A stretch of DNA of 64,000 bases from Vicinamibacteria bacterium (GCA_965215615.1 OZ244068.1:1568850-1632849); one strand, 5' to 3'; shown: positions 9,523 through 64,000, counted from the stretch's first letter. Numbers and translations are program-made. Notes: generated by a model from the letters alone, not told the origin.

Positions 9523-9535
9523 CGGAAACTCTCCC

Positions 9536-10821: not shown

Positions 10822-11484
10822 TCAGTCTAACTGCCGTCCGTACCCGGAGGCGGATGGCGGGACCGGAATGCCGCGCTTCAGGTCGGGAGCGGGTTCAGGC
10901 GGGCCGAACACCGTCCGCACCGGGACGAGGCCCGCCCAGCAGGGGAGGAGATGGTCTTCCTCGTCGTCCACCGGCGGGCCCGTGCGACGCTTCGCGGTGG
11001 CCTCTTCGAGGGGCACCGAAACGACGAGCGTCGCCTTCAATTCGGTTGGATTCGGGGGCCGGGTCTCCCCGAGACGCCCCGGAACCAGCTTTTCGAGGAG
11101 CACGTCCAGCGCCCGCAACTTCGCCTCCGGCTCCTCCACCGGCTCCGCCTTTCCGAGAACCACCACCGAGCGGTAGTTCATCGAATGGTGGAAGGCCGAG
11201 CGGGCGAACACCAGCGCATCCAGCAGGGTCACGGTGACCGCAACTTCCGCCCCGTCCCGGAGCGTGTCGAGCAGCCGGCTCTTCGAGGATCCGTGGAGCA
11301 GGAGCCGCTCGCCGTCGCGGGCATACCCCATCGGGATGACGAAAGGAACGCCGTCCTCGACGATTCCGACGTGGGCCACCAACCCCTCGTCGAGAATCCG
11401 GTGGATGAGGGCGCGATCGTGGCTGCCGCGGGAAGGAATCCTCCGGACCCGGCTCCTCGCGGTCTCCCTGGTCGAACTCGTCAT
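10822..11484 (-). CDS. pyridoxamine 5'-phosphate oxidase-family flavin-binding protein
   Basis: Start at MTSSTRE inside ORF 10822..11529, which avoids overlap with the upstream gene. The pattern R..R....D...I..ILDEG.V.HVG.V.DG.PFVIPM.Y.RDG..L..HGS is typical of the PNPOx-like split-barrel family. Confidence 0.75.
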   Translation of the reverse strand: MTSSTRETARSRVRRIPSRGSHDRALIHRILDEGLVAHVGIVEDGVPFVIPMGYARDGERLLLHGSSKSRLLDTLRDGAEVAVTVTLLDALVFARSAFHHSMNYRSVVVLGKAEPVEEPEAKLRALDVLLEKLVPGRLGETRPPNPTELKATLVVSVPLEEATAKRRTGPPVDDEEDHLLPCWAGLVPVRTVFGPPEPAPDLKRGIPVPPSASGYGRQLD

Positions 11485-11512
11485 CGCTTCTTCCCCGCGG
11501 GCGCGGAAGGTA

Positions 11513-46283: not shown

Positions 46284-46577
46284 ATGCCAGCAAGGAAGAT
46301 GACCTTCAGTCTGGACGAGGAAACGGCGGAGCACATCACCGCGCTCGGGCGCGAGCTCGACAAGCCCAAGAGCGCCATCGTGCGCGAGGCGGTCGCGGTC
46401 TATCGGAAACACTCGGACCGGGTCAGCGAGGCGGAGCGGCGGGAGCGGGTTCGCATCTTTCGTGAGTTCCTCGAAAAGATCCCCCCGGCGGATTCGCACG
46501 AAGCCGCCGAAGCGGAATTGCGTGAAATTCGCCTCGCCCGCCGAAGCGGTGGACGGCGCACTCCGGTGGAGCCGTGA
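46284..46577 (+). CDS. vapB: CopG/RHH antitoxin (VapB-type)
   Basis: Internal ATG of ORF 46212..46577. KMTFSLDEETAEHITALGRELDKPKSAIVREAVAVY is an RHH fold. 4-nt overlap (GTGA) with the PIN gene. Confidence 0.7.
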   Translation: MPARKMTFSLDEETAEHITALGRELDKPKSAIVREAVAVYRKHSDRVSEAERRERVRIFREFLEKIPPADSHEAAEAELREIRLARRSGGRRTPVEP

Positions 46578-46990
46578 TCTTTCTCGACACCTCCGTTCTC
46601 GTGGATGCGCTGACCGGGACCCGGCCGCTCGCCCCTGTCCTGATCCGGGTCCTTTTTTCGGAGGATTCGATCCGCGTCCCTACCCTCGTCCTCTACGAGT
46701 GGTGGCGCGGCCCAAGAGCCCCGAGCGAACTCGAAGCCCAGCGACTCCTGTTCCCCGAGAACCGGGCGGTCCGGTTCGGGCCGCGGGAGGCGCGGGTCGC
46801 GGCGGGCCTCTACCAGACGCTCGAACGGGCCCGCGGCAGGGAGATGGACATCGCGATCGCCGCCTGCGCCATCGCGGCCGACGCCGAGCTCTGGACGCAG
46901 AACCGGAGCGACTTCGCGGACATCCCGAAACTCACGCTGTTCGATCCGGCTCAGCTCCCCGGGGCCACCCGCCAGAAGTGGGCCCGGTAG
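46574..46990 (+). CDS. vapC: PIN-domain toxin VapC
   Basis: 138 aa with IFLDTSVLVDAL (Asp1), LVLYEWW (Glu), EMDIAIAACAI (Asp3) and LWTQNRSDF (Asp4). Confidence 0.85.
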   Translation: MIFLDTSVLVDALTGTRPLAPVLIRVLFSEDSIRVPTLVLYEWWRGPRAPSELEAQRLLFPENRAVRFGPREARVAAGLYQTLERARGREMDIAIAACAIAADAELWTQNRSDFADIPKLTLFDPAQLPGATRQKWAR

Positions 46991-50862: not shown

Positions 50863-51552
50863 ATGACTTCCCGGGCGGTCCTCGACCTCAAGGAGCGCCA
50901 CCGGGAACTGGCCCGCCCCCACCGCAAGGGCGCGGAGTACCGGTTCCCTCCCGAAGCCCTCGGTGGCCTGCTGCTGCGAACCTACCGCTCGATCAGTTGG
51001 CTCGAATACGCGAGCGAGTTCGCCGGCGATCCGGACATGACGTTCCTGCTCCACTGGGTCGCCTTCAACGCCGCCTATGCGCAGGTCCACGACGATGCCC
51101 ATACCGAACACGAGCTCCGCGACCGGTTCTTCGGGAAACTCACGAGCCTCGACCCCGGCCGGCACCTCCATCACGTCATCGCCGACACCCGGTGCGACCA
51201 CTTCGACGCGCTCCTCGAAAACCGGCATCTCTTCGAGCCGTACTGGCACCATATCCACGGGGAACGGGAGTTCGACAACTGGCTCGAGCAACTGAAGTCG
51301 AGAAACCAGTCCGCGAATCAGGCACGGGCCCGCATGGATACCGCCCGGGCGCTTTCCGAGCTTTTCAGCCGCCTCTACACGCTCCGGAACCAGCTCGTCC
51401 ACGGGCTTTCGAGCTGGAGCAGCGGATCGAACCGGAAGTCCGTGGACCCGGCAGCGAGCCTCCTCGAACACCTCATGCCGATCCTGATCGGGATCATGCT
51501 CGACCATCCCGAAGCCGACTGGGGACGGCTGCCCTATCCACCAGCTTCGTAG
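50863..51552 (+). CDS. HEPN-superfamily-like protein (Rx4H motif), function unknown
   Basis: 229 aa, all-helical looking. LFSRLYTLRNQLVHG contains the R-x4-H motif in the ..RN.L.H context typical of HEPN RNase families. Starts 4 nt after the prolyl endopeptidase stop. Confidence 0.55.
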   Translation: MTSRAVLDLKERHRELARPHRKGAEYRFPPEALGGLLLRTYRSISWLEYASEFAGDPDMTFLLHWVAFNAAYAQVHDDAHTEHELRDRFFGKLTSLDPGRHLHHVIADTRCDHFDALLENRHLFEPYWHHIHGEREFDNWLEQLKSRNQSANQARARMDTARALSELFSRLYTLRNQLVHGLSSWSSGSNRKSVDPAASLLEHLMPILIGIMLDHPEADWGRLPYPPAS

Positions 51553-51785: not shown

Positions 51786-53751
<1,966 letters not shown>

Positions 53752-53775
53752 TCCGAAACCCCTCGCCTCCACCCG

Positions 53776-53807
53776 CCCCCCGGGCCTCGCCGCCCGGGGG
53801 GCTTTTT
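53776..53807 (+). terminator. rho-independent terminator of groESL
   Basis: CCCCCCGGGC (53776-53785), 6-nt loop, GCCCGGGGGG (53792-53801), followed by CTTTTT. Begins 25 nt after the groEL stop. Confidence 0.75.
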
Positions 53808-53917
53808 GCGCCCGGTAGGTTACGATCCCTTTGGTCAACGGGACGGCAGGAAGGCTTGGTCTGCCGAGGAAGCCCGTGACAAGTGCCGTCGTGCTGTCGC
53901 GCCAGGCTTCGCGAACC

Positions 53918-55390
53918 ATGCCCGGACTCCACAAGATGCCCTCGGATCGCGACCCTCTTCCCCTTCCCCACGGTTCTTCGCCTCTCGCAGTTCTTCCCCG
54001 CACAAACGCCTCGGCACCTCCTGTGGCGATGAAGCCGGGGACCCGGCCGCCGGGCCAGCCGACACTGTTTGGCCAAGCTGCCCTGCCGTCACAAGATCGA
54101 TCGGGTTCGGGGTTCCTGGATCCGGCATTTGCCACCAACAAGACACAGCCGGTGCACCGCTGGGTTCCGTGGATCGCCGGATTCTCCAAGGAGTTCGTAG
54201 CCGGCGCGTTCGACCGCTTCCTGCCGTCGAAGGGACGAGTGCTCGACCCCTTCGCCGGCGTAGGCACGACCCTGCTCGAAGCGGTGCTGGCAGGCCACGA
54301 TGCGGTTGGGTTCGAGATCAACCCCTACGCTGCCTTCGCCTGCCGAACCAAGCTCCACGCCTTCACCGCTGACCCGGAAAACCTGCAGGATCACGCAGAT
54401 CGCTTCCTGAAATTCCACGCCCGGACCCGGAGCCGGGAACCCAGGTCCAAGCCACCTCCCGGGTTCCGAACGCGCGAGGCTTTCTACCACCCCAAGGTTC
54501 TCCGCAAGGTGCTTTTCTCGTTGGACTTCATCTCGGGAATCGAAGACCCACAAACGCGCGATCTTTTCGAGCTCGCTTTCGCGGCCACCATGGTCTCCTA
54601 CTCGAACTACTCCTATGAGCCGAGCCTCGGCCGGAAAGCCGCAGTCGGGAGGGTCGCAGCCACCGAGTTCCCCGTAGAAGAGTCCATTGCGGCGCGACTG
54701 CTCGACATGTCCGAAGACATCCGCTGGTTCCGGGAGCAACAAGGGAAACGACGGCCGCGCCGGCGCGTCGTACTCGACTCCTTCTTCACGGCTTACCGTG
54801 GGGTGTCCAAGGGCTCGGTGGATCTGATCGTCACCTCTCCGCCCTACCTGAACAACTACCACTACAACCGCAACACGAGACCCCAGCTCTACTGGCTCGG
54901 ACTGGTGGAGTCCACGCGAGATATGAAAGAAATCGAGCAGCGCAACTTCGGGAAGTTCTGGCAGACCGTCAGAGAACAACCCGACGTAGAGCTCGACCCC
55001 GAGATCGCCGACCCAGAGGTCCGGGACACCCTCGCGGAACTCCGCGCCAAGACTCCAGAAAAGAAGATCTACGGCGGGCGAGGCTGGGCCAACTACGCCG
55101 CCACCTATTTCAACGACTGCCTGCGTTTCGCGCGCGGGGCGAACTGGTGCCTCAGGCCCGGTGCCTCGGCGCTCGTCGTCATCGGGAACAGCATCCTCCA
55201 AGGGATTCCGATCCCCACCGATCGCTTCCTGGCGCAGATCGCCGAAGTAGCCGGCCTGGAGACCGTCGCCATCCACATCCCGCGCGATACACGCGTCGGC
55301 AACAGCATCATCAACTCGGACATTCGCGTCGGGTCGGCGGGCCGGAAGAATCGACTCTACGAAGCGGTCGTGGAGCTGAGGAATCCTTGA
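53918..55390 (+). CDS. SAM-dependent DNA methyltransferase (N4-C or N6-A; motif I before an SPPY motif IV), no adjacent endonuclease
   Basis: ORF 53831..55390. VHRWVPWIAGFSKEFV, VLDPFAGVGTTLLEAVLAGHDAVGFEINPYA (FxGxG/motif I) and VDLIVTSPPYLNNYHY (motif IV). The start is uncertain (ATG 53918 or 54029). Codon usage is visibly less GC3-biased than in core genes. Confidence 0.75.
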   Translation: MPGLHKMPSDRDPLPLPHGSSPLAVLPRTNASAPPVAMKPGTRPPGQPTLFGQAALPSQDRSGSGFLDPAFATNKTQPVHRWVPWIAGFSKEFVAGAFDRFLPSKGRVLDPFAGVGTTLLEAVLAGHDAVGFEINPYAAFACRTKLHAFTADPENLQDHADRFLKFHARTRSREPRSKPPPGFRTREAFYHPKVLRKVLFSLDFISGIEDPQTRDLFELAFAATMVSYSNYSYEPSLGRKAAVGRVAATEFPVEESIAARLLDMSEDIRWFREQQGKRRPRRRVVLDSFFTAYRGVSKGSVDLIVTSPPYLNNYHYNRNTRPQLYWLGLVESTRDMKEIEQRNFGKFWQTVREQPDVELDPEIADPEVRDTLAELRAKTPEKKIYGGRGWANYAATYFNDCLRFARGANWCLRPGASALVVIGNSILQGIPIPTDRFLAQIAEVAGLETVAIHIPRDTRVGNSIINSDIRVGSAGRKNRLYEAVVELRNP

Positions 55391-55560
55391 CCTTCCGCTC
55401 TGATACTGCGAAGGAGTAGCGCCTTTTTCATGCCCGGGAAACCTGCCCCCAAGGACACGCTCTCCGATGTCCTCGCCCGAATCGAGCGCGAACTCTCCGC
55501 CTGAACGAGGACTCGCCGCGCTTATCTCTCGGGCGGAGATTGAGGAATCAGCTTGATCCC

Positions 55561-55735
55561 ATTTCGTCTCCCGAACTGGTTCTCGATCCGACGAGACCGA
55601 GCGTCGTCGCCCGGCTGATTACCCTGGTTCTCCTCGCGTGGAGGGCGAAGCGCTCGCCACCGCTTTTGATGGATCGAAAGCACGCACTTGGAGCCGAAAA
55701 GAAGCCAAGTCCTTGTAAGAAAGCGGTTTCTTTAT
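55561..55735 (+). pseudogene. decayed groEL-like fragment
   Basis: 23-nt exact match GTGGAGGGCGAAGCGCTCGCCAC (55638-55660 equals groEL 52864-52886, encoding VEGEALAT). Upstream, ISSPELVLDPTRPSVVARLITLVLLA has the same length as Gro[29 protein letters not shown]. Downstream, LLMDRKHALGAEKKPSP..KKA is comparable to [26 protein letters not shown]. Three reading frames are needed. Confidence 0.35.
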
Positions 55736-55765
55736 TTGATCGAAAAGCGATATAACATCGCCGTC

Positions 55766-57253
55766 ATGGATCAGGAAAGCATCAGGCAGACCGTCCGGGA
55801 GTTGTGCCGGCTTCCGGCGGAGAACGAGTGGGTGGAGTTCAAGGTCAACCAGGCCGAGCCGCGGATGATCGGCCAGCGCATCTCGGCGCTCGCCAACAGC
55901 GCCGCCCTCCTCCATCAACCGGCCGGCTTTGTCGTCTGGGGTGTGGAGGACGGCTCCCACCAGATCGTGGGAACCCGGTTCCGGCCCTCGAAACAGAAGA
56001 AAGGAAGCGAACCGCTGGTCCCCTGGCTGTTCCAGCAACTGACACCACCGGTCCCCTTCCAGGTTCACGAAGTGGAGATGGACGGGAAGCGAATCGTCGT
56101 TCTCGAGGTCAGCCCGGCGCGCAACCAGCCCGTGGCCTTCGCCGGGGAGAGATTCCTGCGTATCGACAGCCAGACCCGAAGACTCGACAGATTCCCGGAG
56201 CATGAGCGGGCGCTCTGGCGCGTGTTCGACACGACACCTTTCGAGGCGCGCACCGCGGCCGAGGGCCTTGCCGGGGAAAAGGTCGCGGCATTGCTCGATC
56301 ACGCGGCGTACTTCGAGCGGCTTCGACTCCCGGTGCCGGGCAACCGGCGTTCCGCATTCGATGCTCTCGCCCGCGACGAATTGCTGCGTCCGGGGGCCTC
56401 CGGAGAGTGGGATATCACCAATCTGGGTGCGCTGCTTCTTGCGCGGCGACTTGCGGATTTCTCCGGGCTGGCGCGGAGAGCGGTGCGACTCATCCGCTAC
56501 CGGGGCACCGGGCGCACCGGCGAGGCTCGGGAATGGGAGTACGAAGATGGCTACGCGCGGTGCCTCGACCGCCTGAATCAGCAAATCGACGGCCAGTTAC
56601 CTTCACGGGAGATCCTCCGAGGCAGCCGGCGAGAGATCGAATGGGCGTTTCCTCCGATCGCGGTTCGGGAGCTGGTGGCCAACGCACTCATTCACCAGGA
56701 TCTCGCCATGCGCGGTGCGGGACCGATGGTCGAGATCTTCGATGGCCGGATCGAGATCACGAATCCCGGCGAGCCCCTGATCGAAACCGAGCGCCTGGTG
56801 GACGCTCCCCCGCAGTCCCGCAACGACCGTCTCGCTTCCCTGATGCGCCGGTTCGGTTTCAGCGAAGAGCGAGGCATGGGGATCGACCGGGTGGTCGAAG
56901 AAATCGAGGCGTACGAACTTCCTCCCCCCCGCTTCCACAAGCCGCAGGGGTTCACCCGCGTGACTCTCCATGCGAGGAAGAAACTCGCCGAAATGAGCCC
57001 GGACGACCGGAACTGGGCCTGTTACCTCCACGCCTGCCTCAGATACCTGAACGGCAACAGCCTCACCAACGCGTCGCTACGGCGACGGTTCGGCATCCCG
57101 GACCGAAACCGGGCGATGGCCTCCCGTCTCATCCGGAATGCGATGGAGAGCGGGGCAATCACTCCTGAAGACACCGCCGCCTCCCGCAAAACGATGCGCT
57201 ACATCCCGTGGTGGGCGGCGCGGGAGAACGGCAACGGGGGGCCGCCGGCCTGA
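55766..57253 (+). CDS. AlbA_2 (Schlafen-like 'divergent AAA') plus HATPase_c_4-type protein with a C-terminal winged helix (often annotated RecG-like/transcriptional regulator)
   Basis: ATG at 55766 in ORF 55688..57253. ENEWVEFKVN.. N-terminal DNA-binding module, RELVANALIHQDL..GPMVEIFDGRIEITNPG (GHKL-like), and the tail ..SRKTMRYIPWWA. Confidence 0.72.
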   Translation: MDQESIRQTVRELCRLPAENEWVEFKVNQAEPRMIGQRISALANSAALLHQPAGFVVWGVEDGSHQIVGTRFRPSKQKKGSEPLVPWLFQQLTPPVPFQVHEVEMDGKRIVVLEVSPARNQPVAFAGERFLRIDSQTRRLDRFPEHERALWRVFDTTPFEARTAAEGLAGEKVAALLDHAAYFERLRLPVPGNRRSAFDALARDELLRPGASGEWDITNLGALLLARRLADFSGLARRAVRLIRYRGTGRTGEAREWEYEDGYARCLDRLNQQIDGQLPSREILRGSRREIEWAFPPIAVRELVANALIHQDLAMRGAGPMVEIFDGRIEITNPGEPLIETERLVDAPPQSRNDRLASLMRRFGFSEERGMGIDRVVEEIEAYELPPPRFHKPQGFTRVTLHARKKLAEMSPDDRNWACYLHACLRYLNGNSLTNASLRRRFGIPDRNRAMASRLIRNAMESGAITPEDTAASRKTMRYIPWWAARENGNGGPPA

Positions 57254-57264
57254 CGGCACTGCTG

Positions 57265-57609
57265 TCAGATCAACCGCAACCCGGCGGAGTCGAATCGCCG
57301 AAAGTCGGCTTGATTCGCGGTCGCAAGGCGCGCCCCATCCTGGATGGCCGCCGCAGCAATCAGGCAATCCGGCAAGGAGCCACGACGACGGCCTGATTCG
57401 TGGAACAGGGCCGCCGCAACCCTGGCTTGCTCCACGTCGAGATCACGAAAGTCGTCCACGATCCATAACGCCAGATCCCGCTCCGCCAGCTCGTGTGAGA
57501 CGACAGATAAAACTGGTCCACCGGATTGGGCGGCCCGCCCGTTCTTTCGACAGCCTGGGCTTGTGTTCCTTCCGGCGAGTGTGGGAAGAACGATGGACAC
57601 CGGAACCAA
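57265..57609 (-). CDS. orphan PIN-domain protein (VapC-like) lacking the first catalytic Asp
   Basis: 114 aa with a TTG start. SIVLPTLAG sits where PINs have (I/L)(L/V)LDT. The rest is intact: VVSHELAE, LPDCLIAAAAI, ATANQADF. Low-GC3 codons (tta, ttt, gat, att). No antitoxin ORF upstream. Confidence 0.6.
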   Translation of the reverse strand: MVPVSIVLPTLAGRNTSPGCRKNGRAAQSGGPVLSVVSHELAERDLALWIVDDFRDLDVEQARVAAALFHESGRRRGSLPDCLIAAAAIQDGARLATANQADFRRFDSAGLRLI

Positions 57610-57636
57610 CGGATTGATTCAGTTGGGGGAGGACAG

Positions 57637-57685
57637 CGCGCCTGCGGGCCGGGAGGAGCGTAGCGACGAGCGGCCCGCAGGCGCG
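57637..57685. other. perfect 15-bp stem hairpin (possible bidirectional terminator or protein site)
   Basis: CGCGCCTGCGGGCCG (57637-57651), 19-nt loop, CGGCCCGCAGGCGCG (57671-57685). Located between the stop of the 57767..58198 gene and the PIN start. No U-tract on either strand. Confidence 0.5.
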
Positions 57686-57766
57686 GCGCCGGGCCTCGCT
57701 CCCGATCCGGATGGTGTCGTCAAGCAGCGGGAACTGGTGACCGCCGCTTCGAGCGAGGCCGCCCGT

Positions 57767-58198
57767 TCAGAACGAGAAGAACGCCCCCATCTGGAAGAGG
57801 GTCAGCGCCTCGCTGAACTGGACGATGAGCCGCGCTCCGTAGCGGCGGCCGAAGGTCAGACTCGCGCCGGCATGGGGCGAAACATTCCCGCCGTCGTACT
57901 CGATGCCCGCCCGGAGCGCCGGACGGATGAGCGCGTCGGCGCGGCCGAGACGGATCGCGCCGCCCGCCCGGTTGGCGGTTCCCGCGACTTCGGCGCAGCG
58001 CCAGTTCTCGACCATGCCGTAGAGCGAGAACGGCCCGGCGACCTGTCCGTTGATCGCGACGAACCGACCCGGACAGGCGTTCTCATCTCCGCCGACGAGA
58101 CCGGCTTCGAAGAGGAACGGACCCGGCGCGTCCTCGGCGACGGCGGGAGCGGCAAGCGCGAGCAGCGCAGCGAAAAGGAGTCCGATGGGTCGGGGCAT
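57767..58198 (-). CDS. small secreted, possibly outer-membrane beta-strand protein
   Basis: 143 aa, signal peptide MPRPIGLLFAALLALAAPAVA, alternating hydrophobic pattern, C-terminal ..GAFFSF (aromatic terminus as in OMPs). No family recognised. Confidence 0.5.
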   Translation of the reverse strand: MPRPIGLLFAALLALAAPAVAEDAPGPFLFEAGLVGGDENACPGRFVAINGQVAGPFSLYGMVENWRCAEVAGTANRAGGAIRLGRADALIRPALRAGIEYDGGNVSPHAGASLTFGRRYGARLIVQFSEALTLFQMGAFFSF

Positions 58199-58219
58199 GG
58201 TCCGGGAACTCTCGCACGG

Positions 58220-58511
58220 TTGACCATGGCTCGGCTCGATTTGACCATGGCAAACCCGGAATGACCATGGTTCGCCGGATGCCGCGCACTCTTCGGCTCA
58301 GCAACCGGCCCCGGTCCCGAAAACCGGCTGGTTTTGCGCCCTCGCGTGGCCGAATCACTGGTTTTCGGTGGCGAACCAGTGGTTCTGGCGCAAATCACCG
58401 GAAAGATTGCTTTGCGGTCGAATTCGCGATTTGACCATGGTTTTCGGGCCCAATTGGCGGTTTGACCATGGTTTTCGGGCAGTTTGACCATGGTTCCCGG
58501 TTTGACCATGG
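58220..58511. repeat. iteron-like array: seven direct copies of (T)TGACCATGG in two clusters around an inverted repeat
   Basis: Copies start at 58220, 58241, 58261 (ATGACCATGG), 58431, 58462, 58484 and 58502. There are two identical 20-mers TTTGACCATGGTTTTCGGGC (58430-58449, 58461-58480). The central inverted repeat is CACTGGTT-N10-AACCAGTG (58356-58381). GGTTTTCGG-like words recur. Confidence 0.85.
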
Positions 58512-58513
58512 CT

Positions 58514-59197
58514 TCAGGAACGGGCGGTGCGATACGCCTGCTGCGGATGACTCGTCTGTTCGGGATGGCGCAGTTCGAGCTGCCCCGCCTTGAGCATCGG
58601 CCGGAGGTGGCGACGCTGCAGGTTGCTCGTGTCCATGCGGAACCAGTCGGCGAGCTCGCCCACCGTGGTCCATTCCCGCATCGCGCAGATTTCGAGGATC
58701 AGCGCGCGGAGCGGCTTCTTGCGGCGGCGCTTCCCGAGGGCGCGGATGCGCTCCCGGATCGCCTGCGGGAGATCGGCCTCCGGCGGGAGCTTCCCGGGTA
58801 GGGGTTTCGGGAGCGATGCCGATTCCGGCTTGCCGCCGGCGAGCGAGGCGAGGCTCGTGCCGAGGTCGGCCACCTCCCCGGCGAAGCCTTCCGCTTCCGA
58901 ACCGGCGCGGGTGACCCCTTCGCCGATCCGACGAAGGCGCGGCCCGCCGCGATCCGGGCCCAGCCGGTCGCCGATCCGGATCGCGGCGCGGCCCACCCGG
59001 ACCGCACCCCGCGAGACGTTCTCCGCGGTTCGGCCGGCCGCCGCGAGACCGCGGGCGATCGGGCCGGCGTTCCGGTCGAAGAAGCGCCAGCCGCGCCGGA
59101 TTCCCCGGCCGAGATAGCGGAGCCAGGCCCCCACGCCACGCAGCCACGGCCGGTCAAAAAAGCGCCGGATCGCCGGGAGTCCGGGAGGCTCGGTCAC
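58514..59197 (-). CDS. protein with an Arg-rich repetitive N-terminal half and a C-terminal winged-helix of the Fic/AlbA_2-associated type
   Basis: 227 aa, GTG start, high GC3. The N-terminus has RRFFDRPW.. and WRFFDRN repeats. The C-terminus is ILEICAMREWTTVGELADWFRMDTSNLQRRHLRPMLKAGQLELRHPEQTSHPQQAYRTA (..P..P.sP.Q.Y+.t ending). Confidence 0.6.
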   Translation of the reverse strand: MTEPPGLPAIRRFFDRPWLRGVGAWLRYLGRGIRRGWRFFDRNAGPIARGLAAAGRTAENVSRGAVRVGRAAIRIGDRLGPDRGGPRLRRIGEGVTRAGSEAEGFAGEVADLGTSLASLAGGKPESASLPKPLPGKLPPEADLPQAIRERIRALGKRRRKKPLRALILEICAMREWTTVGELADWFRMDTSNLQRRHLRPMLKAGQLELRHPEQTSHPQQAYRTARS

Positions 59198-59280
59198 GGT
59201 CAGAAAACTATCAGCCCGAGACGGTGCACGCCCGTCCGTCGCGGGTTACACTCGCCCGCATGGCGAGCAACGGAGAAGTG

Positions 59281-59541
59281 ATGAACCAGCGCACCTATCT
59301 GGTGCTCATCCACGACGGTGCGGAGAAGGCCGCAGATCGCATCCGGGCGAACTACCCGAATGCCTTCCCGATGGAGCACCCCGGCACCTTCCTGATCAAG
59401 ACCGGGCAGCTCTCGGACGAGATCGCCAATACCCTCAAAATCAACGGGGACGACCGCGATCTCATGGGCGTGGTGTTCGGCCTGAAACCGGCGTATGCGG
59501 GGTTCTCCTCGCGCCGGCTCTGGGAGTGGCTCGGTGACTGA
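59281..59541 (+). CDS. 86-aa soluble protein, function unknown (first gene of a two-gene operon)
   Basis: ATG at 59281 with GGAG 6 nt upstream (the ORF track begins at 59224). High GC3. MNQRTYLVLIHDGAEKAADRIRANYPNAFPMEHPGTFLIKTGQLSDEIANTLKINGDDRDLMGVVFGLKPAYAGFSSRRLWEWLGD. Confidence 0.55.
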   Translation: MNQRTYLVLIHDGAEKAADRIRANYPNAFPMEHPGTFLIKTGQLSDEIANTLKINGDDRDLMGVVFGLKPAYAGFSSRRLWEWLGD

Positions 59542-59752
59542 TTACTCCAAAGCTCCGGGTGTTGGGCCCGTGCCGAAGGGAGCGTCGCTCGAAGTCAAGG
59601 TCGCCCGGTTGGAGACACGGGCGGAGTTCTTCGCTACCCGCGAGTGGGTCCTGACCCACTTGGCGAAACGCTGGCAGACCTGGTTGCCGATCCTGTTGTC
59701 GCTCGCGATGGTTCTGCTGTTCTTCTGGCGGGAAATCCGCGCACTCTCCTGA
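59534..59752 (+). CDS. 72-aa tail-anchored membrane protein (XhlA/holin-like architecture), function unknown
   Basis: The GTG at 59534 overlaps the upstream stop (GTGACTGA). The helical N-part (LEVKVARLETRAEFFATREWVLTHL) is followed by one TM helix (WLPILLSLAMVLLFFW). GC3 is high in this frame and low in the overlapping antisense tail of the RM gene. Confidence 0.5.
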   Translation: MTDYSKAPGVGPVPKGASLEVKVARLETRAEFFATREWVLTHLAKRWQTWLPILLSLAMVLLFFWREIRALS

Positions 59753-62507
59753 CCCGCTTCTTCTTGCGGGCGGCGGCGAGCGGGGCGCGCATCCGCTCGT
59801 AGCGGGCGAAGAGGTGTTCCACCCGCTCGCGCTCGGACGAAAACGCCTGCTTCCGGTAGAGCCGGTCCACCGCCCGGTCGAGCGCCGAGTGAGCGCGGCG
59901 CAAATCCCGTGGCATCAGGTCCGGGTCGTAGAGATCGGCGAGCGTCGAACCCGGATGGGCGGCGCGGGCATCGAGCACCGCCTGGGCGAGAGGATCGAGC
60001 GACGCGAGGTCCGGCCCCGGAGTCGGGAAGGTGTTGTACACGAGGCCGATCGAATAGCGGTAGCGGCTCTCCAGGCGGCCGCCGATGTGCCGGAGCCAGG
60101 CCATGTGCATCGCCGAGGTGAGCAGCGCGAACTCGCCGAGGCTCGCGTCTTCGAGGATGCGAACCAGGTTGCTCGGGACCACCGGCGGTTCGAGCCAGCC
60201 GATCGGGGCGTACTCGCGGCGTTCGGAACTCACCTCCGGGAGCACGAGGAACGGCGAGGTCGGTAGAGTGTTGACCTGCCAGTGTCTCGGAGTTTCGGCG
60301 AGCTTCAAGGTCGAGGCTCGACGACTGGCTTCGCGGTAGCGCCGCACCGAGGCCAGCCGCTCGCGCACCCGTGGCATCGCCCGGATTTCCGACGGCTCGG
60401 CCTCGTGGAGCGCGAGGATGAATCGCCGGCCGCCCTGGAGTAACTCGCGGGCACCGAGGTACGGCCGGAGGTACGGCCCGGCGGCGGGCTCCTCCGCGAT
60501 CAGCTCTGCCCCTTCGATCTCACCGAGGATGAGATGGCCGCCGTCGATCGGCTGGGAACCCGTTACCAGCCGGCGCATCCCGTTGATCGGCCGCGCCTCC
60601 TCGCGCACCACGAGATGCGGATCGCCGAGCCCCGAGGCATCGAAGAGATACGGCGAGAGCGCCTGGTGCCGGCTCTCGTGCGGGTCGCCTTTCGGGTCGT
60701 CATACGAGAAGAGCCGCTTCGTCGCCGGCGCGTCCTCCCGCTGCGCGAGCCCGAGGATCACCACGTGCACATGGGCCATCCCGCGGGCATCCGAACCCCA
60801 CGCGAAGGTCCGGTGGGCGAAGGCGATTTCGAGCCCGAACCTGCCGAAGAGGAGCGGCCAGAGCTGCGCCACCTGTTCGCCCTGCGTGATGGAGTTCGTC
60901 GCGACGAAGCCGATCCGCGCTCCCCCGCCCCGGATGTATTCGCCCGCCCGGAGGAACCACGCAGTCACGAAATCGAGCGTCCCGCCGGACCCGCCGAGCG
61001 CCGCGATCCGCCGCACCTGCCCGCGCTGGAGCGCCGACTGGAACTTCGCGCCCCCGAACGGCGGGTTCCCGAAGACGAACGAACACTCCTCCGGCGGCAG
61101 GAGTTCCGCCCAGTCGGTTTCGAGCGCGTCTTCGTTCCGGATCTTCGGCGAGCGGCGGAGCGGGATGCGGGCGAACGCCTGCCCGAAGCGGCGGCCGAGC
61201 TCCACGTTCATGATGTGGTCCATCATCCAGAGCGCGGTCTCGGCGATCCGCGCCGCGAACTCGCCGATCTCGATCCCGTGGAACCGGTCCACGTCGAGCC
61301 GCGAGAGCGCTCCCACGTCGAGCTGGCGGGGGACTTCACCGTAGATCTCCACCAGCACCTCGATTTCGAGCCGCCGCAGCTCCCGGTAGGCGATGATGAG
61401 GAAGTTCCCGCAGCCGCAGGCCGGGTCGAAGAAGGTCAACGCGCCGAGCTTCTCGTGGAAGGCGAGGAGCCGCGCCTCGCGCCCGCGCCTGAGCTCCCGG
61501 AGATTCGCGAACTCGGCGCGGAGGTCGTCGAGAAAGAGCGGCTCGATCACCTTCAGGATGTTCTGCTCGGTGGTGTAATGCGCCCCCGAGGCGCGGCGTT
61601 CTTTCGGGTCCATCACCGACTGGAAAAGCGAGCCGAAGATCGCCGGCGAAATCCGCGACCAGTCGAAGCGGCAGGCCCGCAGCAGTTGCCGGCGCATCGC
61701 CGAAGTGAACGCGGGAATCCGGACCTGCCCCTCGAAGAGATCGCCGTTCACGTGGGGAAAGCGGGCGAGGTCTTCGTCGAGATTCGCGAAGCGCTGACCC
61801 TCGGGCGTGTCCAGCACCTCGAAGAGCTGGGCGAGCCACGGCCCGAGGTCGCTCCCGTCCTCGCGGGTTCTCGATTCGAGAAACTCGAGGAAGATGTCGC
61901 GCGGCTCGAAGATCCCGGTATCGTCGGCGAAGAGACAGAAGACGATCCGGACGAGGAAGCGCTCCAGATCGTGGCCCCGGTAGCCCGCCTCCGCGAGGCT
62001 GTCGTGGAGCTTCCCGACGAGCTCGGCGGCTTCGATGTTCGCGGGATCCTGGTCACGGAACGTCCGCCGCCGCACCCCGAGGATGAAGCCGAACCGGTCC
62101 ACGTGGTCGGGAAGTTCGGCGAGCGCGAACGAGACCTCTTCGCGGGTATCGAGATCGTGAAGCTCGAAGGTCTGGAAGTCGCTGACCAGGATGTACTGCG
62201 GCCGCTCGGCCTCCGGGAGCGCGTCGAAGTACTCCCCCGCCTGTCCGTAAGCTGCCCCGAGATCGCGCCCGGCGCTCTTTTGCTCGACGAGCAGCACTCC
62301 CGGCCAGAAGAGGTCGATGAACCCCGAGGAGTTGTCGAGCCGCCGGACGCGCTCCTCGTAACGGGCCACCGAAGCCCGCCGCACCCCGAAGATCTCGAAG
62401 AACTCGTTGTAGAAGGTCTGGGTCTCGCCCTTTTCGTACCCCGCTTCCGCCCACCGCCGGGCGAACTCGGCCGCCCGGGGGCGGATCTCGTTCCAGGAGA
62501 GGCGCAT
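59634..62507 (-). CDS. MmeI-family type IIL restriction-modification enzyme (fused nuclease, N6-adenine methyltransferase and TRD)
   Basis: 957 aa. N-terminal PD-ExK-like FIDLFWPGVLLVEQKS. SGAHYTTEQNILKVIEPLF. DPACGCGNFLI (motif I). VFGNPPFGG (NPPF motif IV). A long C-terminal TRD follows. The last about 45 codons have low GC3 and overlap the convergent small gene. Confidence 0.88.
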   Translation of the reverse strand: MRLSWNEIRPRAAEFARRWAEAGYEKGETQTFYNEFFEIFGVRRASVARYEERVRRLDNSSGFIDLFWPGVLLVEQKSAGRDLGAAYGQAGEYFDALPEAERPQYILVSDFQTFELHDLDTREEVSFALAELPDHVDRFGFILGVRRRTFRDQDPANIEAAELVGKLHDSLAEAGYRGHDLERFLVRIVFCLFADDTGIFEPRDIFLEFLESRTREDGSDLGPWLAQLFEVLDTPEGQRFANLDEDLARFPHVNGDLFEGQVRIPAFTSAMRRQLLRACRFDWSRISPAIFGSLFQSVMDPKERRASGAHYTTEQNILKVIEPLFLDDLRAEFANLRELRRGREARLLAFHEKLGALTFFDPACGCGNFLIIAYRELRRLEIEVLVEIYGEVPRQLDVGALSRLDVDRFHGIEIGEFAARIAETALWMMDHIMNVELGRRFGQAFARIPLRRSPKIRNEDALETDWAELLPPEECSFVFGNPPFGGAKFQSALQRGQVRRIAALGGSGGTLDFVTAWFLRAGEYIRGGGARIGFVATNSITQGEQVAQLWPLLFGRFGLEIAFAHRTFAWGSDARGMAHVHVVILGLAQREDAPATKRLFSYDDPKGDPHESRHQALSPYLFDASGLGDPHLVVREEARPINGMRRLVTGSQPIDGGHLILGEIEGAELIAEEPAAGPYLRPYLGARELLQGGRRFILALHEAEPSEIRAMPRVRERLASVRRYREASRRASTLKLAETPRHWQVNTLPTSPFLVLPEVSSERREYAPIGWLEPPVVPSNLVRILEDASLGEFALLTSAMHMAWLRHIGGRLESRYRYSIGLVYNTFPTPGPDLASLDPLAQAVLDARAAHPGSTLADLYDPDLMPRDLRRAHSALDRAVDRLYRKQAFSSERERVEHLFARYERMRAPLAAARKKKRVRRVRGFPARRTAEPSRATTGSATRSASVSPSGSGPTRG

Positions 62508-62573
62508 CGGGAGACAATCCTACCGGTCTGTCGGGGGAACGGACGCGACCAAGGGCGTAATGTCCCGGCATCC

Positions 62574-62954
62574 GTGACCCCGCTCCCTTCCGGCCTTGGC
62601 CGCGCCGCCGCCGTCACCCTCGCATTCCTCGGGGCGACGCTCGCCGCCGGGTTCCTGCCGCACGGCACCCTGCCCGCCGTCCTGTTCAGCCTCGCGGTGG
62701 CCGCCTTCTGGATCGCCGGGACGCCGCGCCGGCTCCCGGATCTCCTTTGCGCCGCCGGGCTCGCCGCTTCGCTCGCCACCGGAGCGCTCGCCGCCACCGG
62801 AGCGCTTTTTTCCGGAACTCCGGGGGCCGGCCTCTTCGGGCTGCTGCTCGGGGTGACGGCGATTCCGCTCGTCTTCACTTCCGCGGCCTTCGCGCTCCGC
62901 TTCGATCCCCCCGATCCGGAAGCGCTCCGGCGGCTCCGCGAGGGTCGCGAATGA
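62574..62954 (+). CDS. small polytopic membrane protein upstream of the symporter
   Basis: GTG at 62574 in the last 126 codons of ORF 60534..62954. 3-4 hydrophobic segments. The stop overlaps the symporter ATG (ATGA). Confidence 0.5.
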   Translation: MTPLPSGLGRAAAVTLAFLGATLAAGFLPHGTLPAVLFSLAVAAFWIAGTPRRLPDLLCAAGLAASLATGALAATGALFSGTPGAGLFGLLLGVTAIPLVFTSAAFALRFDPPDPEALRRLREGRE

Positions 62955-64000
62955 TCCCGCTGCTGACCCTCGCGGCCACCCTGCTGATCGGAGCCTGGGC
63001 CGCCCGGAAAACGCGCGGCGCGGCCGACTTCTTCGCGGCGGGGCGGCAGCTCGGTGCGTTCCGGGCCGGGCTCGGAGCCGCCGCTTCTTCGTTCAGCGGG
63101 TTCGTCTTTCTCGGCGGAACCGGGCTCATGCACGAGGTGGGGACCGGCGCTCTCTTCCTCGTGGTCCCGATCGGGTTCACCGCGGCGCTCGTCTGCCGGA
63201 CGGTCGGGCGGCGGCTCGCGCTGATCGCCGAAGCGAGCGGCGCATACACGATCCCGGAGGCGCTCCGTTTCCGCTTCGGGAGCCGCTTCCCGGCCGGAGT
63301 CGCGGCGGTCGCCATCCTGCTCGGGAGCGTGCTCTACCTCGGGGTTCAGGCGGCGGCGCTTTCGCTCGCCATGCGCTTCGCGTTCCCCGATCTCGGGGTG
63401 GCCGCGAGCCTCGGAATCGGGCTCGCCGTCCTGCTCGCCTATTCGCTGCTCGGCGGGATGATCGCCTCGGTGAACACCGATGTCTTCCAGGGACTGCTCA
63501 TGGCGGCGGGGGCCCTTTTCGCTTTCACCTTCGTCCTCGACCATCTGGGCGGCTTCGGCGAGACGGTCGCGACCCTCGAACGCCTCGCGCCCGAACAGCT
63601 CGCTCCGACCGGTTCCTGGCCCCCCGGCACCGGGGTCGGGATGATGCTGCTCTTCGGGCTCGGCGTGTTCGGCCAGCCGCATTCGCTCCACAAGTTCCTG
63701 ATGCTGAAGAGCCCGGACGCGCTCCGCTTCCTGCCGATGGTTCTCGGCGGTGCCCATGCGCTCAGCCTGCTGGTCTGGATCGGCCTCGGACTCGGCGCGA
63801 TGGTCTTCGCCGCCGAAGGCCGGCTGGGGGAGCTCGGCCACCCGGACGAGGCAGCCTTTCTCGTTCTCGGAGCCGCCGAAGCCCCTGCCCTGCTCCTCGG
63901 CCTCGTCACCGCGGCGCTCCTCGCCGCCATCCTCTCCACCGCCGACACCTTCCTGAACCTCGGAGCGGCGGCGCTGGTCCGGGACATCCCCCGCGCCCTC
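62951..64000 (+). CDS. sodium:solute symporter (SSS) family transporter, N-terminal part (runs off the right edge)
   Basis: Not in the ORF track (no stop). ATG at 62951. My translation is MIPLLTLAATLLIGAWAARKTRGAADFFAAGRQLGAF..GGMIASVNTDVFQG..FGQPHSLHKF..LAAILSTADTFLNLGAAALVRD. It shows the typical SSS N-terminal signature and the STADS-like motif. Confidence 0.85.
   Translation, partial: MIPLLTLAATLLIGAWAARKTRGAADFFAAGRQLGAFRAGLGAAASSFSGFVFLGGTGLMHEVGTGALFLVVPIGFTAALVCRTVGRRLALIAEASGAYTIPEALRFRFGSRFPAGVAAVAILLGSVLYLGVQAAALSLAMRFAFPDLGVAASLGIGLAVLLAYSLLGGMIASVNTDVFQGLLMAAGALFAFTFVLDHLGGFGETVATLERLAPEQLAPTGSWPPGTGVGMMLLFGLGVFGQPHSLHKFLMLKSPDALRFLPMVLGGAHALSLLVWIGLGLGAMVFAAEGRLGELGHPDEAAFLVLGAAEAPALLLGLVTAALLAAILSTADTFLNLGAAALVRDIPRAL

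Follow-up and report, generated by a model that had tools for sequence, protein, structure and literature searches.

A Hypervariable Locus Downstream of groEL in Vicinamibacteria Combines an MmeI-Type Restriction Gene with a Winged-Helix Protein and a Split Repeat Array

We analyzed a 64,000-nucleotide stretch of DNA (the window) from an uncultured marine member of the Vicinamibacteria (Acidobacteriota), whose closest named relatives are Ca. Marinacidobacterium MAGs. The 8.7 kb that follow the groEL terminator would represent, in this strain, a hypervariable locus that has long existed across the clade and gathers defense-type and other accessory genes. At the core of the block there appears to be an old module of three parts: an MmeI gene, then (originally in the same operon) a gene for a protein with a coiled coil and a winged helix, and then a cis element. 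We hold this combined reading, the best explanation overall, with moderate confidence; that the block is a hotspot rather than an island is highly probable. Much of the evidence comes from a sister strain, L088, which is 97–98% identical to the window and has the same gene order, and from the corresponding loci of related species.

Results

Anatomy of the MmeI Gene, the Winged-Helix Gene, and the Repeat Array

The restriction gene (59634..62507, minus strand) encodes an apparently intact MmeI-family type IIL/IIG restriction-modification (RM) enzyme of 957 aa. The five MmeI Pfam domains occur in the order MmeI_N, MmeI_hel, MmeI_Mtase, MmeI_TRD, and MmeI_C within one polypeptide (Pfam 4e-45 to 1e-77), and the PADLOC model REase_MTase_IIG spans residues 2–908 (E=0), which places the protein in the family, as had been predicted from the DNA alone. 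Its translation shows DLFWPGVLLVEQK (D-x9-EQK), FFDPACGCGNF, and GNPPFGG (NPPF), which we take to be the motifs of a PD-(D/E)xK nuclease and of a gamma-class N6-adenine methylase (FxDPxCGxG, NPPF). Enzymes of this family cleave about 20/18 nt from an asymmetric site and methylate one strand. They are regarded as stand-alone, and we know of no description of a partner gene and repeat array for MmeI-type enzymes. The exact MmeI sequence of the window had no entry in the assembly index.

Downstream on the same strand is a gene (58514..59197, minus strand) for a 227-aa coiled-coil/winged-helix (wHTH) protein. Its AF2 model (pLDDT 81) comprises a long helical hairpin (residues 17–119), a Pro-rich linker, and a C-terminal winged helix (residues 160–224), in keeping with the winged-helix protein of the original prediction. 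We found 38 close homologs. A profile search yielded 1724 representative clusters; the wHTH is thus common to more than 1,700 clusters, about 40 of which have the full architecture, and the homolog list suggests a single copy per genome. Strong matches to the family's C-terminal domain are found at the C-termini of AlbA_2+HATPase_c_4 proteins (P0049, E=9e-44), and the Pfam family Fic-like_C (PF21247) matches it weakly. Best in the fold search were a Fic protein (4rgl), MarR proteins, and 3lmm, the whole protein giving domain-level matches only, and the profile returned only low-complexity and coiled-coil noise against the sequences of solved structures. Neither Pfam nor PADLOC found a WYL domain, the model containing only hairpin, linker, and wHTH, and the protein, which falls in no Pfam family, matched neither HTH_3 nor any Rep family.

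The array, earlier described as iteron-like, consists of seven direct copies of (T/A)TGACCATGG within 58220–58511, a count higher than in any of 100 shuffles. Outside such arrays, neither the window nor the other loci contain the motif. Four direct copies, spaced 18, 22, and 31 bp apart, make up a proximal cluster (58431..58511, minus strand) that begins 7 bp past the wHTH stop codon. A distal cluster (58220..58270, minus strand) holds three direct copies of CCATGGTCA(A/T), read on the minus strand at a spacing of 20–21 bp, and stops 22 bp short of the start codon of the next gene, sec143. Between the clusters is a curved spacer of ~160 bp (58271..58430, minus strand), whose A/T tracts are phased with the helix (the autocorrelation has peaks at lags of 10, 20, and 30) and which is partly conserved across species (alignment A3). 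Across eight loci the spacer has a GC content of 0.56–0.65, which is slightly AT-enriched, and contains no unwinding element.

Several other functions for this DNA were considered and rejected. A consensus scan detected no sigma-70-like promoter in or near the array, where antisense TTGACC boxes lack a −10 partner, so a promoter was rejected; no intrinsic terminator was predicted after the wHTH gene on the strand of that gene. The covariation term of RNAalifold for the spacer (+0.69) gives no support to a noncoding RNA. A search for DnaA boxes in eight loci, allowing two mismatches or fewer, returned two isolated 2-mismatch strings only; with neither a convincing DnaA box nor an AT-rich element, a replication origin was likewise rejected.

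The wHTH Gene and the Array Occur Together in Several Species

A split array lies directly past the wHTH stop codon (7–60 bp) in 11 of 13 distinct loci, which come from several species; a scan of JGI metagenomes yielded only 8 loci. The layout is 4–6 plus 3–5 direct copies of RCC-NNN-GGTCAA at ~20-bp spacing with a curved spacer, and a layout like that of the window is found in L071, L072, L073, L074, L077, L078, L080, L081, and L086. GGTCAA and the layout are constant while the NNN triplet depends on the lineage (CAT, AAT/TCT, CCG, or CGT); covariation between recognition helix and motif is weak. Tandem direct repeats two turns apart are more typical of iterons and centromeres than of operators. 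The protein is present and the GGTCAA array absent in L070 and L075, and in two distant members of the wHTH family (L089 and L090) both MmeI and a downstream array are missing.

MmeI lies directly upstream of the wHTH gene on the same strand in 8 of the 13 loci, with a gap of 2–14 nt in three of them, and L077 keeps a remnant of the MmeI C-terminus. The wHTH gene and array also occur without MmeI, in three lineages (L072, L073, and L075), and MmeI occurs without the wHTH gene (L003 and L055), so the three parts need not occur together. The distance from the last repeat to the start codon of the following same-strand gene is 22–85 bp in the window, L071, L078, and L072. What follows the array varies (sec143, a nuclease, a helicase, or an IS110 transposase, and in L071/L078 an opposite-strand parD embedded in the array itself), and because this gene is not conserved there is no constant regulated target. 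Judged from these alignments and gene orders, the wHTH protein and the array are a conserved unit. They are also probably a cognate pair, the presumed binding being a matter of guilt by association.

Could the wHTH protein instead serve MmeI, as an accessory subunit or controller (C-protein-like, or a specificity or anchoring factor), with an array that acts in RM control, for example by timing or dampening restriction? The operon-like coupling of the two genes in several species speaks for such a role, as do the frequency of MmeI upstream of the wHTH gene and the remnant in L077. The cleavage reach of MmeI-type enzymes also equals the repeat spacing (~20 bp), which may be coincidence. We nevertheless consider this role unlikely, since the wHTH gene and array are kept where MmeI is missing and two loci have MmeI without the wHTH gene, since the sites stand at the 3′ end of the operon and not at its promoter, with no copy of the motif upstream of MmeI, and since the array and wHTH gene are (nearly) identical between the window and L088 although the MmeI TRD/MTase differs. 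The last point, together with the existence of arrays without MmeI, also led us to reject the array as an MmeI target or a tracker of its specificity.

Similarly doubtful is a plasmid-like reading, in which an integrated element that may have carried MmeI left the wHTH gene and array as its replication (Rep plus iterons) or partition (centromere-binding protein plus centromere) module, now a relic or still maintaining the element. Iteron-like direct repeats in sets of 4–6 and 3–5, spaced 18–22 bp apart beside a winged-helix gene, are what such a module would have, and split two-block centromeres with DNA bending are known, for example TubR/tubC (PMC6009700). Yet no ParA, ParM, TubZ, helicase-loader, or Rep_3-type gene is nearby, the DnaA boxes and unwinding element of an origin are lacking as described above, and the fold is a hairpin with one wHTH and not the dual winged helix of Rep. 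The gene is chromosomal, apparently single copy, and loosely syntenic across species. Members of the family were found neither on PLSDB plasmids nor in INPHARED phages or IMG/VR contigs, BFVD contained no matching fold, and on these grounds a plasmid or phage origin was rejected.

Other Genes of the Block

The first gene past groEL (54029..55390, plus strand) encodes a beta-class DNA methyltransferase (N6_N4_Mtase, SPPY motif). Pfam PF01555 and the full-length PADLOC MTase_II model (1e-34) match, TSPPY is present in the sequence, and the true start is the ATG at 54029, the start called in L088 as well. No partner nuclease gene adjoins it in the window, so we call it an orphan, in line with the original prediction. 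A proposal that this SPPY methylase targets the CCATGG core is unsupported: the core triplet varies between species, and CCATGG is undepleted (18 observed, 22 expected).

What had been read as a decayed groEL-like fragment is something else. A 24-nt exact match (55637–55660) to groEL (52863–52886) sits in another reading frame, with no similarity on either side, inside a small ORF (55431..55755, plus strand) that is broken by a 53-bp deletion and intact (~125 aa) in the sister strain. Both tblastn and blastn yield the 24-nt identity only, and a groEL pseudogene was rejected. The 495-aa AlbA_2 (Schlafen-like) and HATPase_c_4 protein that follows (55766..57253, plus strand) is as predicted (Pfam 3.8e-19 and 1.9e-22). 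An ortholog (82%) follows groEL in L006, and AlbA_2 paralogs do so in L001 and L018.

The next gene (57265..57609, minus strand), predicted as an orphan PIN protein with low GC3, does have a low GC3 (0.66) and is a vapC relic. The Pfam PIN match covers residues 56–107 only, and just the C-terminal half (aa 40–114) aligns to the intact orthologs in L011 and L056, which start MIHLDTS; the N-terminal catalytic strand is missing. The window thus has neither the complete PIN domain with an N-terminal acidic DTS/DTN strand nor the adjacent antitoxin of a VapBC pair, no vapB being found in it. The sister strain has suffered a different deletion in this module, which left vapB and the opposite half of vapC in place. 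The perfect 15-bp hairpin noted at first is present (57637..57685; arms 57637–57651 and 57671–57685, 19-nt loop) but is not found in L088, and it lies inside a strain-specific replaced segment (57307–57751).

The small secreted protein of the original prediction, sec143 (57767..58198, minus strand; 143 aa), has a signal-peptide-like N-terminus and a C-terminal Phe. Its only homolog in all fetched loci is that of the sister strain, and its AF2 single-sequence model (pLDDT 42) is uninformative. Between MmeI and the wHTH gene on the opposite strand is p105 (59281..59541, plus strand), an ORFan of ~86 aa from the ATG at 59281 whose only homolog is P0183 in the sister strain; by its sequence comparison p105 behaves like a gene. 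The overlapping p85 (59495..59752, plus strand) is doubtful. Only its C-terminal hydrophobic part is conserved, the same part that overlaps the MmeI 3′ tail, and L088 has a 28-bp deletion at this site, does not keep the ORF, and has no gene called there, so that p85 is probably not a gene. Of the predicted two-gene operon, p105 is the likely gene.

No family in Pfam, NCBIfam, or PADLOC matched p229, sec143, p105, p85, or the small membrane protein downstream of the block. Of the genes put forward earlier as uncharacterized defense candidates, the wHTH gene co-occurs with MmeI; the ORFan p105 is otherwise seen in the sister strain only, p85 is unlikely to be real, and sec143 is unlinked to defense.

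Recombination between Near-Identical Strains

Comparison with L088 revealed two levels of divergence at synonymous sites. The values of pS are 0.00–0.015 in POP, groESL, AlbA2, sec143, the wHTH gene, and SSS, and they rise to 0.126 in the methyltransferase gene, 0.148 in p105, and 0.087 in MmeI. Relative to the flanks, synonymous divergence is thus 6–10 times as high in the orphan methyltransferase, p105, and the methylase/TRD region of MmeI (pN/pS, 0.14 for the methyltransferase and 0.29 for p105). The divergent part of MmeI is the MTase/TRD part (~aa 270–803), and the N- and C-terminal parts are not divergent. The vapC/hairpin segment cannot be aligned between the strains, while 58099–58898 shows zero differences and the wHTH gene as a whole only two synonymous ones. 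The synonymous excess in the methyltransferase gene, p105, and the MmeI methylase/TRD region indicates, from the pattern of substitutions, allelic recombination at the RM genes.

This strain pair is a clean natural case of recombinational allele replacement limited to a methyltransferase gene and the methylase/TRD part of MmeI, with near-identical flanks. Frequent specificity switching would give such a pattern. The locus as a whole would turn over by three routes: gene loss or decay, as in vapBC and the small ORF at 55431–55755; small local insertions, as with p105; and replacement of RM alleles by homologous recombination, in the orphan methyltransferase and the MmeI methylase/TRD.

A Variable Locus Anchored at the groEL Terminator

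The left edge of the variable region is the intrinsic terminator of groEL (53775..53802, plus strand), with 11 G-C pairs followed by TTTTT, the clean terminator that had been placed at the start of the block; sister-strain divergence climbs directly past it. The order POP-groES-groEL and ~10 kb of upstream DNA are syntenic in 21 related species. Genes 3′ of groEL are mostly singletons in these species, and the content changes in nearly every one of them. At this position 20 related species have other genes, many of defense type: AlbA_2, PIN, MmeI, Mrr_cat, bacHORMA, and DUF3226, along with AAA_15/21 (OLD-like) and sacsin-like ATPases. Ank/PQQ, efflux, and metabolic genes make up the non-defense content. 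In the window, MmeI, the orphan methyltransferase, AlbA_2, and the vapC relic cluster in the manner of a defense hotspot. The post-groEL stretch is accordingly accessory and enriched in defense genes, as the original prediction held.

The same prediction took the stretch to be a single 8.7-kb inserted island, and a single horizontally acquired defense island between groESL and the symporter operon, its mobility genes since lost, now looks very unlikely. Such an island would fit a block that starts exactly at the groEL terminator, holds RM, AlbA_2, and PIN genes, and contains four genes (methyltransferase, sec143, wHTH, and p105) without counterpart in the groEL loci of 21 other species. But the features of a genomic island (an integrase or recombinase, a tRNA/att site, flanking direct repeats) are absent. 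As already predicted, the window contains no integrase or transposase among its Pfam matches and no tRNA; three ARAGORN calls all fall inside coding sequences, and Rfam finds nothing. With no flanking repeats of at least 16 nt at the block boundaries either, a tRNA/att insertion site was rejected and the ARAGORN calls were taken as false positives.

Composition gives little more. GC3 is somewhat lower in the methyltransferase gene (0.79), AlbA2 (0.80), and the vapC relic; all block genes other than the relic lie at 0.79–0.87, against 0.72–0.93 (median 0.84) for genes outside the block, so only the relic falls below the range and most genes equal the core genes in GC3. The claim that several genes use fewer G/C-ending codons is therefore weak, and the GC profile of the window is unremarkable, without the clearly deviant composition of an island.

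Orthologs of three block genes also sit directly after groEL in different species (AlbA2 at 82%, the vapC relic at 68–69%, and MmeI at 72% identity), a divergence like that of the core gene POP, which is 74–86% identical to its relatives. Two further genomes carry MmeI with the wHTH gene in the same orientation, ~20–25 kb from groEL. Both observations argue against a single acquisition.

Past the block, the predicted symporter operon is present as a small membrane protein and an SSS-family symporter (62574..64000, plus strand), which the sister strain has in identical form and which lack synteny with groEL in other species. To go by the gene orders compared, this flank is a rearrangement breakpoint and not conserved backbone. 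Relatives consequently offer no empty site, and the exact insertion boundaries that the groEL-to-symporter interval was expected to give cannot be derived from the symporter side.

That the block is ordinary ancestral core genome, its variability an artefact of comparing distant MAGs, is refuted despite the exactly identical gene order in the sister strain and the core-like GC3 of several genes, because the same 21 loci are syntenic over the upstream 10 kb and not downstream and because conservation is non-uniform even between near-identical strains, with a 6–10-fold synonymous excess in three genes and a replaced segment, where an ancestral core would have combined the same order with uniform conservation.

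Discussion

The data are best read as a hypervariable hotspot with an old MmeI–wHTH–array module at its core. In that module, the cis element consists of two same-orientation clusters of 10-bp repeats (RCC-NNN-GGTCAA, about two helical turns apart) with ~170–220 bp of curved DNA between them. We infer that the winged-helix domain reads the repeats and that the helical hairpin oligomerizes the protein; occupied clusters would then meet over the curved spacer to form a single compact nucleoprotein complex. Standing at the 3′ end of the MmeI–wHTH unit and ahead of a variable gene, the complex would most plausibly act as a boundary and operator, halting read-through from the RM operon and setting the expression of the adjacent cargo gene, which is sec143 in the window, its place being taken in other species by a RecB-like nuclease or a PD-(D/E)xK-UvrD helicase. 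We propose this boundary/operator function only tentatively. More speculative still is the full proposal that MmeI, the coiled-coil/wHTH protein, and the split array are a previously unrecognized unit, in which a segrosome-like complex on a curved two-block element forms a boundary or silencer that gates defense cargo, or else a site without a motor at which the RM gene is anchored or maintained; we rate it as possible, with low confidence.

If this proposal were true, the module would represent a novel class of cis/trans element linked to a restriction system, and the wider wHTH family may mark similar protein/repeat pairs elsewhere. Should the protein bind the array, one protein and ~450 bp of DNA would make a tractable system for the insulation or regulation of defense loci, and RCC-NNN-GGTCAA arrays after the gene would serve as an annotation signature. 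As an island, the locus would be ordinary: another defense-gene hotspot, in a little-known group.

Comparison with Known Systems

Like known defense islands and hotspots, the locus brings RM, TA-type, and other defense genes together at one place, with varying content and turnover without a mobility gene. It differs in having the groESL terminator of marine or sponge-type Vicinamibacteria as its anchor, in being mixed with ankyrin/PQQ, efflux, and metabolic genes, and in being partly old and vertically inherited.

Partition systems of type III (TubR-tubC) and type II (ParR-parC) resemble the module in that a DNA-binding protein, in TubR a small winged-helix protein, is encoded beside two blocks of direct repeats; ParR/parC of R1 has 5+5 repeats. 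Their complexes bind cooperatively, bend the DNA, and form rings or loops, which the complex proposed here would share. The tubC site of prophage c-st has TTGAC iterons, and a double ring forms there (PMC6009700). The module, unlike these systems, is chromosomal, has its repeats downstream of the gene and not at the promoter, and is without a motor gene (no ParA, ParM, or TubZ NTPase in the window or in 11 related loci); its protein contains a long coiled-coil hairpin and does not match TubR in sequence. Iteron replicons (RK2, F, P1, pPS10) share direct repeats of ~20–22 bp in two clusters beside a winged-helix gene, two iteron clusters being known in RK2, F, and P1. What distinguishes such replicons, namely a Rep_3 or dual winged-helix protein, DnaA boxes, an AT-rich unwinding element, and a family carried on plasmids, is lacking here.

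C-proteins and BrxR/CapW are likewise DNA-binding proteins in or next to a defense operon. They bind inverted repeats at upstream promoters and have HTH_3 or wHTH-WYL domains (PMC9122601, PMC9122589). The wHTH gene, in contrast, lies downstream of its enzyme, and the arrays are 7–14 direct repeats at the 3′ end, with no inverted C-boxes upstream of MmeI; the protein has neither the HTH_3 domain of an RM C-protein nor the WYL domain that follows the wHTH in BrxR/CapW.

The enzyme itself is a typical MmeI-family member in its five ordered domains, its nuclease, SAM-binding, and NPPF motifs, and its length, and it is set apart by its coupling to a downstream gene for a DNA-binding protein and to a repeat array. 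The protein in turn shares its C-terminal wHTH (Fic-like_C, PF21247) with AlbA_2-HATPase_c_4 and Fic proteins, and here that domain is joined to a helical hairpin instead.

A hypervariable locus downstream of groEL

The content of the block that follows groEL was read from the ORF listing, Pfam, PADLOC and NCBIfam, and most of the originally predicted inventory was confirmed. Beyond a strong groEL terminator (53775-53802) lie a beta-class N6_N4 DNA methyltransferase with a TSPPY motif (true start 54029; the identical start is called in L088, the genome of a sister strain), an AlbA_2 + HATPase_c_4 protein (AlbA2; 55766-57253), a PIN fragment that is a vapC relic (57265-57609, minus strand), a perfect 15-bp inverted repeat (57637-57685), a 143-aa protein with a signal-peptide-like N-terminus (sec143; 57767-58198, minus), seven direct copies of the repeat (T/A)TGACCATGG (within 58220-58511), a 227-aa winged-helix (wHTH) protein (58514-59197, minus), two small plus-strand ORFs (p105 and p85), and a complete MmeI-family enzyme (59634-62507, minus) with five family domains and both nuclease and methylase motifs. 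Past the MmeI gene come a small membrane protein and then an SSS symporter. As claimed, no integrase, transposase or tRNA is present in the window (Pfam, ARAGORN, Rfam); three ARAGORN tRNA calls (30888-30972, 54371-54463, 59767-59836), all within long coding ORFs and negative in Rfam, were rejected as false positives in GC-rich DNA.

Other details fared less well. The supposed decayed groEL-like fragment is limited to 24 nt identical to groEL (55637-55660 = 52863-52886) between unrelated flanks, and it sits in a frame other than that of groEL inside a small ORF (55431-55755, plus) between the methyltransferase and AlbA2 genes. This ORF is split in the window by a 53-bp deletion, its counterpart in L088 (6125-6500) is intact at ~125 aa, and no family match was found. 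Several genes had been said to use fewer G/C-ending codons, but GC3 is 0.79-0.87 for all block genes except the vapC relic (0.66); since these values, the relic apart, fall within the range of genes outside the block (0.72-0.93, median 0.84), the codon-usage argument is weak. The orphan PIN gene exists as an ORF, but it aligns with intact orthologues at residues 40-114 only and lacks the MIHLDTS strand; L088 retains vapB and the N-terminal half of vapC with an internal deletion, so the two strains carry independent wrecks of one vapBC module. The hairpin falls in a segment (57307-57751) that is unalignable between them. Only half of the proposed two-gene operon stands: p105 is a live gene, but p85, which overlaps the MmeI tail in the window, has a 28-bp deletion in L088 and is neither kept as an ORF nor called as a gene there.

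Relatives were found by searching with prolyl oligopeptidase (POP), which is encoded upstream, and the window was thereby assigned to Vicinamibacteria (Acidobacteriota); MAGs called Candidatus Marinacidobacterium or Vicinamibacteria bacterium matched best (74-86% identity). POP-groES-groEL is syntenic in 21 loci of relatives, as is the ~10 kb upstream in species of the ~75% POP-identity group, and the genes downstream of groEL in the 21 loci are mostly singletons. Pfam analysis of 89 downstream proteins and of the closest species returned AlbA_2, PIN, MmeI, Mrr_cat, bacterial HORMA, DUF3226 and ATPases (one AAA_15/AAA_21, one sacsin-like), alongside ankyrin/PQQ proteins, MacB/HlyD efflux components and metabolic enzymes. 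An AlbA2 orthologue occupies the same place in L006 (82% identity), vapC orthologues (68-69%) directly follow groEL in L010, L011 and L056, and MmeI orthologues are at this place in L003 and L055 (72%), with a fragment in L043. Because these identities resemble those of POP, AlbA2, vapC and MmeI have long resided here, with patchy loss, and are not recent imports. A second PIN/VapC-type gene, apparently intact (46574-46990, plus; start VIFLDTS), lies ~7 kb upstream of the block, and its product falls into one cluster with the vapC that follows groEL in L010, L011 and L056.

No boundary repeats flanking the block were found. None of the right-flank genes (SSF symporter, Ddl, amidohydrolase) is close to groEL in other species, and in the ~75% POP-identity group the rhodanese gene that comes next is upstream of POP, which makes the right edge a rearrangement breakpoint. 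In the window's species the rhodanese gene (L088 17867-18697) is ~4 kb past MmeI, and in the ~75% group it is ~10 kb upstream of POP (first 1 kb of the L003, L005, L008 and L056 loci), a displacement that indicates an inversion or rearrangement, one end of which falls at the variable locus. Rather than one inserted element, the block is a defence/accessory hotspot, hypervariable and anchored at the groEL terminator. The original observation was largely correct. Its reading as an accessory/defence island holds for function and variability but fails on the single insertion; in itself, the island is ordinary.

A 229-aa protein, p229 (50863-51552, plus), lies between POP and groES; it has an Rx4H HEPN-like motif (RNQLVH) and matches PADLOC CARF_HEPN weakly (E=0.0012). 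It is limited to the window, L088 and L008, and in most relatives the slot holds an unrelated ~260-aa gene (cluster c4), which makes the POP-groES gap a second small variable slot.

Mosaic divergence between sister strains

L088, a 2.9-Mb genome that holds the only p105 homologue, has the gene order of the window (POP-p229-groES-groEL-MTase-AlbA2-PIN relic-sec143-wHTH-p105-MmeI-SSF) at 97-98% nucleotide identity. Synonymous divergence (pS) is 0.00-0.015 in POP, groESL, p229, AlbA2, sec143, wHTH and the symporter, and 0.126, 0.148 and 0.087 in the methyltransferase, p105 and MmeI, respectively. The differences in MmeI are concentrated at codons ~270-803, which encode the methylase and target-recognition domains (TRDs), with the nuclease and C-terminal parts at baseline. 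The whole wHTH gene has two synonymous differences, and the array together with most of that gene (58099-58898) has none. The methyltransferase, MmeI and p105 have pN/pS below 0.3 and are thus live genes. This mosaic indicates that the restriction-modification alleles were replaced through homologous recombination.

A winged-helix protein paired with a repeat array

The wHTH protein has 38 close homologues, none named and none with Pfam domains, and those with a traceable source genome belong to the window's clade. They are 294-316 aa long; the window copy is complete, with a shorter Pro-rich linker. In an AlphaFold model built with the homologue alignment (pLDDT 81), residues 17-119 form a long antiparallel helical hairpin and residues 160-224 a C-terminal winged helix, joined by a disordered linker. 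Foldseek returned domain-level matches only (Fic C-terminus, MarR proteins, 3lmm, chemoreceptor- or ROP-like hairpins), and 11 of 29 family members have a weak Pfam match to Fic-like_C. An exhaustive profile search yielded 1,724 representative clusters (43 below 1e-30), with full-length coverage in ~30 among the matches listed; the wHTH domain alone also forms the C-terminus of many AlbA_2+HATPase_c_4 proteins.

The motif count of the array was reached by none of 100 shuffles, and elsewhere in the 64 kb the motif is absent save for one match with one mismatch. Across 13 distinct wHTH loci, the array starts 7-60 bp past the wHTH stop codon in 11; it was missing from L070, where an ISL3 insertion lies nearby, and from the distant L075. 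Its layout is constant: a proximal cluster of 4-6 copies spaced 18-22 bp apart (about two helical turns) with a last gap of ~31 bp, a spacer of 170-220 bp, and a distal cluster of 3-5 copies, every copy in the same orientation. The motif is RCC-NNN-GGTCAA, NNN being CAT in most loci, AAT/TCT in L073, CCG in L074 and CGT in L077. The spacer is alignable between species and has a clear 10-bp A/T periodicity (autocorrelation ~0.2 at lags 10, 20 and 30), where control segments of the window have codon periodicity only; its GC content is 0.56-0.65, and it contains no convincing DnaA box and no RNA covariation signal. It thus resembles intrinsically curved DNA that separates two protein-binding blocks. 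This anatomy is kept across species whose wHTH proteins are only 40-54% identical, and protein and array form one conserved unit. L086 (4229-4700) and L087 (4253-4720) each have an intact two-cluster CCATGGTCAA array but only a 22-aa C-terminal remnant of wHTH beside it, so an array can persist after the gene next to it is lost, or be served in trans.

Several loci have peculiarities of their own. In L070 (from the L018 genome) the MmeI/wHTH junction is duplicated (8527-8754 and 9861-9956), with a wHTH N-terminal fragment after MmeI, an MmeI C-terminal fragment before the full wHTH gene and ~1.1 kb between; the ISL3 transposase is just downstream, and there is no GGTCAA array. In L071 and L078 the distal cluster is separated from a third cluster of these repeats by an orphan ParD-antitoxin gene on the opposite strand (11418-11675, minus, and 9492-9749, minus, respectively); a 556-aa RecB-like/DEDD-exonuclease-like protein, also present in L072, follows. 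Two distant family members, L089 and L090, have neither downstream array nor MmeI and instead have tandem repeats upstream of the gene (6543-6887, 3 x 115 bp, and 2700-2779, 3 x 32 bp, respectively); protein-repeat pairing may be a wider theme, though two cases prove nothing.

MmeI is directly upstream of the wHTH gene on the same strand in the window, L088, L070, L071, L074, L078/79, L080 and L082. The two genes are 2-14 nt apart in L071, L078 and L074, p105 is wedged between the two on the opposite strand in the window and L088, and L077 has an 87-aa MmeI C-terminal remnant before the wHTH gene. The wHTH gene occurs without MmeI in L072, L073 and L075, with the array in the first two, and MmeI occurs without wHTH in L003 and L055. 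The linkage of the two is thus strong and ancestral without being obligate. Two complete genomes have the module ~20-25 kb from groEL, oriented as in the window. Different genes follow the array: sec143 in the window, an IS110 transposase in L074, a 556-561-aa RecB-like or exonuclease-like protein in L071, L072 and L078, and a 1,873-aa PD-(D/E)xK-UvrD protein in L073. About 4.5 kb past the array of L071 (15449-18520; L058 genome) is a 1,023-aa protein that matches Prok-E2 (weakly), ThiF, Prok-JAB and patatin; it is a CBASS-type accessory/effector fusion, and the module neighbourhood thus carries further defence genes.

Possible roles of the module

The array lies at the 3' end of the transcription unit, no terminator was predicted on the wHTH strand after the gene, and in four loci the cargo gene starts 22-85 bp past the last repeat. 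We propose that the wHTH domain would read the repeats, that the helical hairpin would mediate oligomerisation, and that the two clusters would come together across the bent spacer as one compact complex. The role we favour for such a complex, with limited confidence, is that of a boundary or operator, a roadblock to MmeI-wHTH read-through that would also control the adjacent cargo gene.

A controller of MmeI would fit the operon coupling, but the sites are at the 3' end, the arrays are identical between strains with different TRDs, and loci without MmeI exist. A centromere or iteron origin would suit the repeat architecture, its closest analogue being the split tubC centromere, whose TTGAC iterons are bound by the winged-helix protein TubR (PMC6009700). 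This reading is weakened by the lack of motor or Rep genes near the module, of a convincing DnaA box and of an unwinding element, by the chromosomal, vertically inherited state of the module, and by the absence of the wHTH family from the plasmid, phage and viral collections searched. The MmeI-wHTH-array module is the most interesting content of the block and matches no described system in the membership tests run.
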